Assembly (NCBI GenBank): GCA_965662115.1
Contig: CBFIGH010000013.1
Span: 11,914 to 75,913 of the forward strand
Origin: Cyanobium sp.
GTDB lineage: Bacteria > Cyanobacteriota > Cyanobacteriia > PCC-6307 > Cyanobiaceae
DNA length: 64,000 nucleotides
Direction: 5' to 3'
Shown: positions 1,765-4,933 of the stretch, in pieces
Numbering within the stretch: position 1 is the stretch's first letter
How the letters are laid out: every line of letters begins with the position of its first letter
Notes under the pieces: model-generated
The model's input: only the letters and a program-made list of their open reading frames with translations
Database searches by the model: none
What the model was told of the DNA's origin: nothing
Position numbers and translations under genes: made by a program

Positions 1765-3288
1765 ATGATTCAGGGGCGGGTGTTTCCCGCCTCTCTCCAT
1801 GTTTTGATCTTGACGATCATGTCCCGCTGCGAAGACTTTGCAGGCCTCTTTGCCCTGTTTGATCAGGACGGTGATGGCTGGATTTCGGCGGCGGAGGTGG
1901 AGCGCGTTCTGGCCACCATGGCCGGGGTTATGGCTGCTGATGACGGCGACGCCCTGCGCGCCCTCGTGGCCTCCCAGGGGGAGGTTGCCCGCTCGGTCTT
2001 CAGCCTCTGGGCCCAGGAGCGGCCGGGTTTGGCCATCTCCTCAACCCTGCGCGACATTTTTGCCCTGGTCGACCGCGACGACAGCAGCTCCCTCAGTGCC
2101 CCTGAGCTGGAGGTGCTGCTCGCCGCCCTGGCCCCCTGTTGCCCCGAGCTCCCATCGGTGCAGGGGCTCCTGGCCGCCCTTGACCGCGATGGTGACGGCG
2201 ACCTCAGCGTGGAGGAGTTCCTGCAGCTGCTCGACGCGGATGGGGCGACCGTGCTGTCCCTGGCCGATCTCAAGCGGTTGAAAAAGACCCTGGCGCACTA
2301 CGTCGGTGCCGCCAGCCGCCCCAAGGTGGCCATGGTGGAGGTGGATTGCGACCTCGGTGCCGGCATTCCTGGCGCCGGATCGGGCATCGACCTGCTCAAG
2401 CAGGCGGCCAACCGCCAGCAGGCACTGCGCCAGATCAGCGATCGCCTGGTGGAGGAGATTCAGGGGCAGGCCCGGCTGGGCGCCAGGGCCGCGGAGCTTG
2501 GGACCGCCACCGCCACCCCCCATGCCCGTCACATCGAGACGATCGCGGCTGTGATGGCCGATGCGGCCGCCTTGGTGGCCTCCACCCTGGAGCGGGGCCT
2601 GTTTCCGATCGTGATCGCTGGGGATCACTCCACCGCCGCCTCCACCATGGCCGGCATCCGTCGGGCCCATCCCGATCGGCGCCTGGGCGTGGTGTGGATC
2701 GACGCCCATGCCGATATCCATTCCCCCTTCACGACACCGTCCGGCAACATGCACGGGATGCCCCTGGCCATCGCGGCGGCCCATGACAACTCCGGCGAGG
2801 CGATCAACCAGCCGGATGGAGTCACCCGTTTGCTCTGGAAGCAACTCCAGCAACTCAATGGCACAGGCCGGGCGTCGATCGCCCTGGAAGATCTGATCTA
2901 CGTGGCGGTGCGCGATACGGAGACCGCTGAAGACCTCACCCTCGAACGGTTCTCTATTCCGGTGGTCAGTACGGAGGACGTGCGCCGGCTTGGCCCCGAA
3001 GGAGCAGCCCAACGCTGCCTCGATCATCTGGAGGCCGTGGATTTGATTTATGTGAGTTTTGATGTGGATTCCATGGACTCCACCATCTGCAAGGGCACCG
3101 GTACTCCCGTACCCGGCGGGCTGTGGGCCGATGAAGCGCGGCAGCTCACCCGTTATCTGCTGGCCGATCCCAGGGTGTGTTGCTGGGAAATCTGTGAAAT
3201 CAATCCCCATCTCGATTCACTCAACACCCTGGCCGAGGTGTCTCTGGGGATCTATCAGCAGGTGTTAGAGGTGCTCGACGCCCGTTGA
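1765..3288 (+). CDS. EF-hand (x3) - arginase fusion protein (alternative start ATG 1819)
   Basis: N-terminal EF loops [36 protein letters not shown]. The C-terminal ~320 aa carry ureohydrolase motifs AGDHS, [25 protein letters not shown] (arginase-type SGNxHGMP), SFDVDSMD and [10 protein letters not shown]. Confidence 0.85.
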   Translation: [507 protein letters not shown]

Positions 3289-3292
3289 TCGG

Positions 3293-4933
3293 TTGATGGC
3301 GACGCCTCCGGATTCGGCCTTCGATCTCCTCAAGGGCATGCTCCAGCCGCCGGCGTCCCTGCCGACGCGTCTGCAGCGGCTGCTGCCCACCAGTGGCACC
3401 CTGCACCAGCTGCATGCTCCGGCGGCTGCTATCCACCCGGGACTGGTGTCGGTACTGGGCGGATTGCGGGGCCTGGCCCAGGTCATCTTCATCAACAACC
3501 CGATCAGTGGCCTGGTGCTGCTGGGAGCCTTTCTGGTGCAGTCGCCATCCATGGCCCTGCTGGCGCTGCTGGGTGCCGCCGCCGCCCACGGCACGGCCAG
3601 CCAGCTCGGCTTTGAGCAGGGGCTACGTCGGGAAGGCATCTACGGCTTCAACGGGGTTTTGGTGGGTTGCGCCATCGCCCATTTCGCCCAGCTGGAGCCT
3701 CCCTGGGCTGCTCTGGTCTGGGCAGCTCTGGTGCTGGTGGGGGGCGGCCTGAGCACCCTGGTGCTGGAGGGGTTGCGCCGCGGCCTCAATCGCCGCAGTG
3801 GATTACCGCCCCTGACCCTGCCGTTCTGCCTGATCACCTGGGCCCTGTTGGCCCTGGGGAGCCAGGAGCCAGGAGCGGTGCTGCCCCTGGCTGACCCGGT
3901 GGTCCTTTCCGATGGGGAAGGGGTCTGGCAGGCACTGGCGCTGGGCTTGCCCCGATCCGCGGGCCAGGTGTTCCTCTGCTCCAGCCTCTGGAGTGGCTTG
4001 CTCGTTCTGCTGGCCACGGCCCTGGCCAGTCCCCTGGCGGCCGCCCTCGGCCTGTTGGGCGGCCTGGTGGCCATGGCGACTGCCCTGCTGGCCGGCGCCC
4101 CTCTGCCGGCCGTTGCCCAGGGGATTTGGGGGTATAACGGCGTACTGGTGGCCATCGCCCTGGGGGGGATTTTCTATGCCCCCACCCTGCGCAGCCTGGC
4201 GGTAGCCCTGGGGGCTGCGGTGCTGGCCACCCTGCTCCAGCTCGCCTGGGTCGGTGCCCCGACCCAGGGGTGGCCGCCGCTCACCCTGGCGTTCGTGCTG
4301 GCCACCTGGGCCGGGCAGCTGCTGGTGCGCCAGGCCCTGCCCGCCTTACTTCCGGTGTCGGTGCACGGGATCCTCACCCCGGAGGAACACCGGGCGCGCT
4401 TCTTGCTGGCCCAAGGTCTGCTGGTGGATTTCCGCCGCAACCTGCGCCTGGCCCCCACCGGCCAGCGTCGCGCGCTGATGGCGGGTCGTGTGCCGGTGCT
4501 GATGCGGCAGAAGATGGCCGTGTTGTTCCAGCGCCTGGATCGCGATGGCAACGGAGCCATCAGTCCGGCCGAGTTGCTCGAGGGGCTGCGTCTCGATCCC
4601 CAGAGCACGGCTGCCTCAGCTGCGCTGGCGGCCCAGCTCAGCCAGGTGCTCCAGGCGATGGACTTGGATGGCGACGGCGTGGTGGATGCCGAGGAGTTCG
4701 GTGAATTGATGCTGCGCCTGCAGCGCTTGCGCCTCGGGGAGGGGCGCCTGCTCCACTATCTGATGCCCGTTGACGCCAACGGCAATGACCGGCTGGACCC
4801 CGCCGAGCTCGGCCGTCTCCTGGCCAGCGTGGCTGAACCGCCACTCAGCGCTGAAGAGGAGACAGCTGTGTTCGGCCAGTTGGCCCAGGCCCTCAGCTGG
4901 CGGCAGTTCGTTGATCGCCTGCTGCTCACCTGA
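3293..4933 (+). CDS. UT-family urea channel with C-terminal EF-hand domain
   Basis: [36 protein letters not shown] and a second-half [14 protein letters not shown] are typical of urea transporter (UT) repeats. The ~170 aa tail has EF loops [36 protein letters not shown]. The gene starts 4 nt after the arginase stop. Confidence 0.8.
   Translation: [546 protein letters not shown]

Follow-up and report, generated by a model that had tools for sequence, protein, structure and literature searches.

An EF-hand arginase-clade gene linked to an EF-hand urea-channel gene in Cyanobium: a candidate Ca2+-responsive module for arginine breakdown and urea permeation

The mitochondrial aspartate/glutamate carriers aralar and citrin and the ATP-Mg/Pi carrier SCaMC are regulated by Ca2+ through a fused EF-hand domain. 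In Helicobacter pylori, the proton-gated urea channel UreI responds to periplasmic pH and feeds urease. The known bacterial channels of the UT family are, to our knowledge, treated as ungated pores, and we know of bacterial urea channels as suppliers of a cytoplasmic urease. Here we analysed a 64-kb stretch of DNA from Cyanobium sp. (64,000 nucleotides (nt) of contig CBFIGH010000013.1; hereafter the window), in which two adjacent genes on the + strand encode an arginase-clade ureohydrolase with an N-terminal EF-hand domain and a UT-family urea channel with a C-terminal EF-hand domain (UT-EF). We propose, with moderate confidence, that the two genes form an operon in which the EF-hand domains act as Ca2+ switches in cis, and that urea production and urea permeability would thereby be co-expressed and co-regulated.

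RocF arginases (Bacillus subtilis, B. caldovelox and Thermus thermophilus; PDB entries 6nfp, 1cev and 2eiv) share with the window enzyme the fold (template modelling score, TM, 0.77-0.80), the six Mn ligands, the catalytic His141 and Glu277 and the substrate contacts Ser137 and Asn139. In comparison with them, the window enzyme has an additional calmodulin-like head of about 165 residues, a junction helix and a disordered insert at residues 180-222, carries His in place of Asn130, and scores under the rocF equivalog cutoff. UT channels (dvUT of Desulfovibrio vulgaris, Yut of Yersinia, mammalian UT-A and UT-B) have in common with the window channel the ten-helix two-repeat fold (TM 0.85-0.87), the Q-T-T-Q chain, the full urea recognition motif, the cytoplasmic termini and the C1 helix, whereas only the window channel continues beyond the C1 helix into a tail of about 170 residues that resembles calmodulin and the calcium-dependent protein kinases (CDPKs). 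In CDPKs and like enzymes, too, a conserved basic amphipathic helix connects a four-EF-hand domain with the effector; here, however, the effectors are a ureohydrolase and a channel instead of a kinase, the host is a prokaryote, and any autoinhibition is putative. Aralar/citrin and SCaMC resemble the pair as transporters of nitrogen or urea-cycle metabolites with a fused Ca2+-sensing EF domain, a likeness of function only, and differ in their unrelated transporter fold, their N-terminal EF domain and their eukaryotic origin. UreI is comparable to the window channel in being bacterial, signal-gated (as would be the case here) and partnered with a cytoplasmic urea-metabolising enzyme, but it belongs to an unrelated family, senses periplasmic pH and not cytoplasmic Ca2+, and has no urea-producing partner. 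CSE (Ca2+ Sensor EF-hand) of Anabaena is, like the pair, a cyanobacterial EF-hand product tied to nitrogen and carbon status; it is a free-standing 8.5-kDa two-hand protein of filamentous species only, with unknown targets (bioRxiv 10.1101/571836; PMC7065334), whereas the sensors in the window are fused to their presumed targets.

Neither a search of PDB sequences nor the open-access full-text literature yielded an EF-hand arginase or a solved or described UT channel with a calmodulin-like tail. This agrees with the first-pass annotation of this DNA, made by a model from the letters alone, in which no EF-hand-regulated arginase or UT was known to have been described in bacteria. What is new is the regulatory architecture and its pairing; both catalytic parts fall within known families, the channel as an ordinary member and the arginase as a more divergent one.

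The list of open reading frames (ORFs) confirmed both genes at the coordinates first annotated: an ORF of 507 codons at 1765-3288 (+) for the EF-hand arginase, and one of 546 codons at 3293-4933 (+) for the UT-EF channel. Each is further supported by Pfam, by an AlphaFold2 (AF2) model and by at least 120 homolog clusters (at 90% identity) of the same architecture, which are annotated merely as 'arginase family protein' or 'urea transporter/Ca2+-binding EF-hand superfamily protein'. The motifs originally quoted for the two products (AGDHS, others and six EF loops) were each found in the translations. The arginase ORF ends with TGA at 3286-3288, so that the reported gap of 4 nt holds for a channel start at TTG 3293 (546 residues) and becomes 7 nt for ATG 3296 (545 residues), the start used in the recorded gene model (P0121). 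For the arginase, TTG 1810 or ATG 1819 is probably the true start rather than ATG 1765, because most homologs are 493-500 residues long and the first 18 residues are unconserved; the resulting protein would have about 489-492 residues. Unless a position refers to the full ORF, arginase residues are counted below from M19 (ATG 1819) and channel residues from ATG 3296. When the window was scanned in all six frames, all four matches to a strict EF-loop pattern and six of the seven matches to a relaxed one fell inside these two ORFs; such confinement of the strict loops indicates that they are not there by chance. Profile searches of both proteins returned the Arginase, UT and EF-hand families above their thresholds, as the first-pass annotation had anticipated.

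The first gene encodes an arginase-clade ureohydrolase, as judged from its sequence. Its catalytic domain (2323-3285, +) matched Pfam Arginase PF00491 over residues 188-488 of the ORF (E 2.4e-46; 158.9 bits against a cutoff of 22), and the nearest PDB sequences were the arginases of T. thermophilus (2eiv, E 2.7e-40) and B. caldovelox (1cev, E 1.2e-33); agmatinase-like and guanidine-hydrolase-like entries aligned to the C-terminal third only, with E values of 1e-17 or worse. The AF2 model (mean predicted local distance difference, pLDDT, 80; predicted TM score, pTM, 0.84; residues 180-222 disordered) had only true arginases among its top 50 Foldseek neighbours in the PDB (TM 0.70-0.80). Among 100 homologs, the six Mn ligands H270, D295, H297, D299, D415 and D417 were invariant (100/100), corresponding to His101, Asp124, His126, Asp128, Asp232 and Asp234 of rat arginase. 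Equally invariant were H312, the equivalent of the catalytic His141, and E460, that of the guanidinium-binding Glu277, together with S308 (Ser137), N310 (Asn139), E371 (Glu186) and the equivalent of Thr246. The Asp181 equivalent was kept in 98 of the 100 homologs, and rat Asp183 was replaced conservatively by Glu368 in 99. This placement matters because the cyanobacterial ureohydrolases covered by a survey of arginine catabolism group with agmatinases and guanidinobutyrases, not with arginases (PMC2242806).

The second gene encodes a UT-family channel core with both pseudo-repeats (3461-4330, +), in keeping with its original designation: Pfam UT (PF03253) matched residues 58-341 of the ORF (E 2.5e-69; 234.1 bits against a cutoff of 25), PDB sequence matches included human UT-A (8blo, E 5e-63) and Desulfovibrio dvUT (E 7e-36), and the AF2 model (pLDDT 86; pTM 0.84) aligned by Foldseek to UT-A, UT-B and dvUT with TM 0.85-0.87. 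A cryo-EM study of 2024 defined a urea recognition motif, Q-V-Y/F-T in both halves, with a Q(Pb)-T(5b)-T(5a)-Q(Pa) chain (PMC11589576). All eight positions of this motif, the hydrogen-bonding Q-T-T-Q chain included, are conserved in the window channel and its homologs: Q62, V63, F118, T174 and Q224 are invariant, and V225, Y280 and T330 are kept in 102, 101 and 93 of 106 homologs, respectively. In UT channels, which are homotrimeric, both termini are cytoplasmic, and the C1 helix lies with the long intracellular loop at the inner channel mouth or vestibule, where both form part of the pocket for cytoplasmic blockers (PMC11589576).

Each of these catalytic or pore-forming parts is joined to three canonical EF loops and one degenerate hand, which together make up a two-lobed calmodulin-like domain. 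In the arginase head (1861-2217, +) the loops lie at 1861-1896, 2071-2106 and 2182-2217, with the degenerate hand between the first two; in the calmodulin/CDPK-like channel tail (4496-4930, +) they lie at 4538-4573, 4661-4696 and 4772-4807, and the fourth hand is degenerate. The Pfam families EF-hand_6, _7, _1 and _5 passed their thresholds in the first protein (E 1e-15 to 1e-9), as did EF-hand_5, _1, _6 and _7 in the second (E 5e-13 to 1e-10). The AF2 models place eight helices in residues 4-138 (the head) and another eight in residues 401-544 (the tail), and PDB sequences of calmodulin matched the head over residues 22-162 and the tail over residues 408-516. Three loops per protein follow the canonical 12-residue EF pattern, in which positions 1, 3, 5 and 12 provide oxygen ligands and position 8 is hydrophobic; Gly stands at position 6 in four of the six. 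In the 100 arginase and 106 channel homologs, positions 1, 3, 5 and 12 were D, N, S or E in more than 95% of cases in all six loops, indicating selection for metal binding. Together with the cytoplasmic C-terminus of UT channels, this conservation is consistent with Ca2+ control of both proteins.

In both proteins the calmodulin-like domain is covalently joined to its effector through a conserved amphipathic helix. The basic junction helix of the arginase (2257-2301, +; residues 147-161, starting at S147) links the EF head to the arginase domain and is a candidate cis-regulatory element, judged by conservation and the AF2 model. Its K155 and K156 are 97-99% conserved, better than most EF residues, and L151, L154 and L158 are 89-96% conserved; in the model the helix spans residues 148-165, and the first strand of the arginase fold follows it. 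A cytoplasmic junction helix of the C1 type (TPEEHRxRF...FRRNLR; 4376-4459, +) connects pore helix 5b of the channel to the EF tail. P362, E363, H365, R368 and R380 are invariant there, and F379 and L383 are at least 93% conserved. Both junction helices match or exceed the EF hands in conservation. The modelled helix (residues about 361-388) aligns to the C-terminal helix of human UT-A and runs straight into the EF tail; junction and tail together align with the calmodulin-like activation domain of a CDPK (3khe, over residues 379-511), and Foldseek likewise matched CDPKs and calmodulin. The pTM of 0.84 in both models may point to a defined placement of head and tail.

The first-pass annotation had described the two proteins as carrying the same Ca2+-sensor module. 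This did not hold: one module is N-terminal and the other C-terminal, and BLASTP of head against tail gave a match over 23 residues (E 4e-4) that reflects generic loop similarity only. The origin of both modules from one duplicated module was rejected on the same evidence. We also considered the arginase head and junction helix as a portable cassette found on other enzymes. When 1.84 billion representatives were searched exhaustively with phmmer, full-length matches came from EF-arginase-like entries only, the remaining matches being generic multi-EF repeat proteins, and the idea of a shuffled cassette was therefore rejected.

Linkage of the two genes is conserved well beyond the window. In a scan of one genome per species, UT-EF genes were found in about 65 genomes, nearly all of them Cyanobium/Synechococcus (Prochlorococcaceae) and including marine WH 8017; in filamentous cyanobacteria UT-EF occurs at 35-37% identity. 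About 25 of the approximately 65 scanned UT-EF loci have an EF-arginase gene immediately upstream in the same orientation, and other searches added further linked contigs (L001, L002, L082, L083, L085, L161 and L162). The order arginase-UT is thus kept in at least 30 loci from several clades with differing flanking contexts, and linked pairs reach down to 43% (UT) and 57% (arginase catalytic domain) identity. In 17 of 26 measured loci the intergenic distance was between -32 and +10 nt, with a frequent 11-nt overlap of stop and start whose recurrence indicates translational coupling. A scan of positions 1200-5400 found no sigma-70 promoter or intrinsic terminator consensus between or within the genes, although such a scan is uninformative for cyanobacterial promoters. 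These data bear out the operon-like linkage proposed at first, and co-transcription of the pair is likely from the gene arrangement. The two fusions and their adjacency recur in picocyanobacteria; the architecture is common and not singular, and UT-EF often stands alone.

In the mechanism that we propose, the first gene would supply a cytoplasmic Mn-dependent ureohydrolase, most likely converting L-arginine to ornithine and urea, and the second a passive UT-family urea channel whose last pore helix would pass through the C1 junction helix into the four-EF-hand tail. Each EF domain would act in cis on its junction helix, as the calmodulin-like domain of a CDPK does. A rise in cytoplasmic Ca2+ would lead to EF binding and repositioning of the junction helix, and would alter both enzyme activity and channel opening; by co-expression, urea production from arginine and the urea permeability of the membrane would change together. 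A gate on the channel would make physiological sense, because an always-open channel would be expected to leak urea accumulated by the ATP-driven Urt importer. Urea from both sources, the enzyme and the channel, would go to urease, the channel itself being bidirectional. As the most plausible trigger we envisage the Ca2+ transient after nitrogen deprivation, which has been recorded in Anabaena and in Synechococcus elongatus, and which is NtcA-dependent in S. elongatus (PMC4284465). The binding of Ca2+, the regulation in cis and its sign, the substrate, the trigger and the direction of flux are all elements that we infer.

Several observations weigh against this mechanism, or against parts of it, and they are given in the following paragraphs beside the alternative explanations on which they bear. 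The first set concerns the substrate. Rat Asn130, which contacts the alpha-carboxylate, is replaced by His301 in 100 of 100 homologs, and NCBIfam TIGR01229 (the rocF equivalog) gave the full protein 183.5 bits and its catalytic domain alone 185.5 bits, under the model's cutoff of 227.6. The ureohydrolase domain and the arginase-type motifs of the original assignment stood, and an arginase is likely; because of the equivalog score and the invariant His we use the label arginase-clade ureohydrolase and regard L-arginine as the probable substrate. The enzyme might instead release urea from another guanidino compound (homoarginine, a guanidino acid or an arginine derivative, for example), and the module would then serve that compound and not arginine; we consider this fairly unlikely. 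In favour of this, annotated cyanobacterial 'arginases' have repeatedly proved to be other ureohydrolases (PMC2242806), the disordered insert is a further departure, and the His is a subfamily-wide trait, since it also occurs in 70 scan loci without a strict EF loop upstream, mostly low-GC EF-less relatives of 38-49% identity. Against it, the top sequence and structure matches are all true arginases, with agmatinase and guanidine-hydrolase entries confined to the C-terminal third; the equivalents of S137, N139, H141, D181 and E186 are invariant or nearly so, with D183 conservatively replaced by Glu; and the EF-less relatives straddle the TIGR01229 cutoff (219-243 bits).

The second set concerns the EF loops. 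In loop 2 of the arginase (2071-2106), position 6 is Ser, against Gly in 98 of 100 homologs, and position 4 is Asp, against Gly in 57 of 100; this loop may bind Ca2+ weakly in the window copy. Loop 3 of the channel has Asp at position 6, which is conserved in the family (90/106). Two linked loci (L031 and L063) retain an intact arginase catalytic domain beside UT-EF in which unrelated sequence has replaced the EF head and junction helix. Since these copies kept their catalytic motifs, catalysis appears to be independent of the head. Loss of the head is also among the points in favour of the EF hands being structural sites that bind Ca2+ or Mg2+ constitutively, for folding, stability or oligomerisation and without a part in signalling; conservation of the metal ligands would be expected equally for such a site. 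We nevertheless regard this explanation as unlikely. Four-hand lobes next to a basic amphipathic helix are the typical layout of a sensor rather than of a buffer or structural domain, in line with the CDPK match. Both domains are moreover predicted to be cytoplasmic, the arginase from M19 having no signal peptide and UT termini being intracellular, and free Ca2+ in the cytoplasm is low and transient (PMC4284465).

The third set concerns the linkage itself. In about 36 loci, i.e. about half, UT-EF has no arginase within several kilobases, and in a neighbour-joining tree these loci interleave with the linked clades. Three loci (L081, L086 and L087) have an EF-arginase, but the 0.9-1.8 kb examined downstream of it contain no UT. 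The arginase has decayed in two loci: fragments remain in Cyanobium BSA11S (L034), and the copy in L029 has lost part of its EF region and carries an internal deletion. In one clade the two genes are separated by spacers of 80-300 nt. The coupling of arginase and channel is thus facultative, not obligatory. The solitary channels and the spacers, together with flanking genes that are otherwise unrelated, would suit two proteins that respond to Ca2+ and are each useful alone, neighbours in some lineages yet uncoupled in function. Such mere neighbourhood is very unlikely in our judgement, because stop and start codons overlap in several clades, repeatedly by 11 nt. Order and strand are the same in at least 30 loci of several clades in differing genomic contexts, and what the enzyme produces is what the channel conducts. 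Among 75 EF-less arginase relatives, none adjoins a UT gene, and an unrelated actinobacterial UT gene also adjoins a gene of the arginase family (L076).

The same loci bear on how the EF domains would work. As protein-protein interaction modules they could tether an arginase oligomer under the trimeric channel, the channel tail binding the basic junction helix of the arginase, or the reverse, and urea would then pass directly through the membrane, possibly in a Ca2+-dependent manner; we rate this as quite unlikely. A conserved basic amphipathic helix does lie beside the calmodulin-like domain in both genes, the genes are tightly linked and frequently overlap, and arginases form trimers or hexamers. 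UT channels, for their part, are homotrimers (PMC11589576). Nevertheless, 22 picocyanobacterial and six filamentous UT-EF genes without an arginase retain the tail with intact EF loops and Ca2+ ligands, so that the tail would have to act on the channel itself. The EF-arginases without a UT in the downstream sequence examined, the headless arginases that still lie beside UT-EF, and the absence of specific similarity between the two EF modules also speak against docking. A prokaryotic Ca2+-assembled enzyme-channel metabolon, a symmetry-matched complex in which channel tails would capture arginase junction helices or the reverse, an arginase trimer would be docked under the pore and arginine breakdown would be coupled directly to the passage of urea across the membrane, is held to be very improbable. 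We consider switches acting in cis more probable than such an assembly. With tentative confidence, the two EF domains could be CDPK-style, cis-autoinhibited Ca2+ switches, the first in bacteria to act on a metabolic enzyme and on a solute channel, and the pair could be the first direct metabolic effectors of the nitrogen-starvation transient.

The last set concerns nitrogen control and the fate of urea. A tentative NtcA-box-like motif, GTAGCTACAACGAC, lies at 1709-1722 (+), upstream of the arginase gene. In the NtcA consensus, GTA-N8-TAC precedes a -10 element by about 22 nt; the window motif has a GAC half-site and no clear -10 element, a point against the proposed mechanism. At 60-160 nt upstream of the arginase start, a GTnGC-N7-AC motif was found in 11 of 29 orthologous loci against 0.8 expected from shuffled sequences, a count inflated by relatedness among the loci. 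The box is a perfect GTA-N8-TAC in Synechococcus WH 8017 (L059), and hexamers resembling a -10 element are suitably spaced in several loci. These motifs give a hint of NtcA control of the pair. Urease, urt and cyanophycin genes were sought in the 64-kb window and none was found; for urease and urt this is a further point against the mechanism. The direction of net urea flux does not follow from the locus, because the channel is passive and the window holds no urease or urt genes. By analogy, channels that feed a cytoplasmic urease would favour a role in uptake plus mobilisation; adjacency to a urea producer favours a role in release.

Transients of Ca2+ in cyanobacteria follow nitrogen deprivation, temperature change and osmotic shifts, and cyanobacterial Ca2+ signalling is poorly understood, with few protein components known (bioRxiv 10.1101/571836; PMC4284465). 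The pair may be a direct target of this signalling. Since a presumed sensor is fused to presumed effectors for which simple colorimetric and established flux assays exist, its role in the response to Ca2+ can be tested in vitro. If the proposed mechanism is correct, an enzyme of the true arginase clade joins picocyanobacterial nitrogen metabolism, an ecologically dominant group gains a second, passive urea route besides Urt, and the UT family, a human drug target, gains its first gated member. Should the pair prove insensitive to Ca2+, it would still be a conserved operon for an arginase and a urea channel, though of ordinary interest.

In the window, the pair is surrounded on the opposite strand by what appears to be a single ABC-transporter cluster (563-1309, 5036-5260, 5296-6201 and 6220-7470, all -). 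The order is aminotransferase, PhnD-like phosphonate-type binding protein, 74-residue membrane ORF, the pair, 76-residue ORF, ABC ATPase and permease, and two other contigs (L161 and L162) have the identical layout. The 76-residue ORF (1406-1636, -) is divergent from the arginase gene, and the NtcA-box-like motif lies between the two. It had no match in Pfam, NCBIfam or the PDB and belongs to a family of about 130 clusters (60-91% identity) restricted to picocyanobacteria, which adjoins the pair in 12 loci. As an obligate third component of the pair it was rejected: of four long contigs examined, three carry it in unrelated surroundings without arginase or UT. In one locus (L049) a channel without arginase has the 76-residue ORF just upstream and otherwise the same flanking clusters, as far as the noisy ORF clustering allows. 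Neighbour clusters c2, c17 and c24 from the ORF calling were rejected as antisense artefacts of high-GC DNA. An IS66-family transposase gene (DDE_Tnp_IS66, zf-IS66) lies at 9243-10781, about 4 kb 3' of the pair. Glutamate 5-kinase (AA_kinase plus PUA; 55406-56509, -) and a 438-residue protein consisting of the glutamine synthetase catalytic domain alone (61896-63212, -) belong to glutamate and proline nitrogen metabolism and are encoded far from the pair.

Elsewhere, UT-EF and its relatives occur in other gene neighbourhoods. In filamentous cyanobacteria (L053-L057), the genes after UT-EF encode a 5'-nucleotidase/metallophosphatase that has three EF loops at its C-terminus, an inosine-uridine nucleoside hydrolase and a mechanosensitive channel of the MscS type (examples at L055:3495-5189, L053:3155-4177 and L056:5497-7086). 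The 5'-nucleotidase-EF-hand fusion is a second EF-tagged catabolic enzyme adjoining an EF-tagged urea channel, and this neighbourhood may be a Ca2+-linked module for the salvage of nucleotide nitrogen. The actinobacterium Micrococcoides hystricis (L076:5911-7866) has a plain, EF-less UT gene followed by an arginase-family gene whose product is 23% identical to the window enzyme; it is an independent case of UT-ureohydrolase adjacency outside the cyanobacteria. Seven records with UT-EF of 49-53% identity to the window protein, sometimes with EF-arginase (L016, L023, L037, L063, L067, L068 and L075), resemble Cyanobium records and carry non-cyanobacterial titles (Mesorhizobium, Rhizobium, Tabrizicola, Bordetella, Bifidobacterium and others); these metagenome-assembled genomes are probably mislabelled. 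In one clade of UT-EF without arginase (L020, L021, L025, L026, L030, L035 and L040), a convergent gene for a ClC-type chloride channel lies directly downstream, and some of its loci have alanine dehydrogenase upstream; the ClC gene of the window is at 33608-34951, 29 kb away from the pair. On a contig with a pair of 48% identity (L001:6590-17545), the two genes are part of a longer same-strand run with gaps of 3-8 nt, which encodes in order a 467-residue GATase-like protein, EF-arginase, UT-EF, two DctP (TRAP) binding proteins and two sensor-SpoIIE phosphatases.

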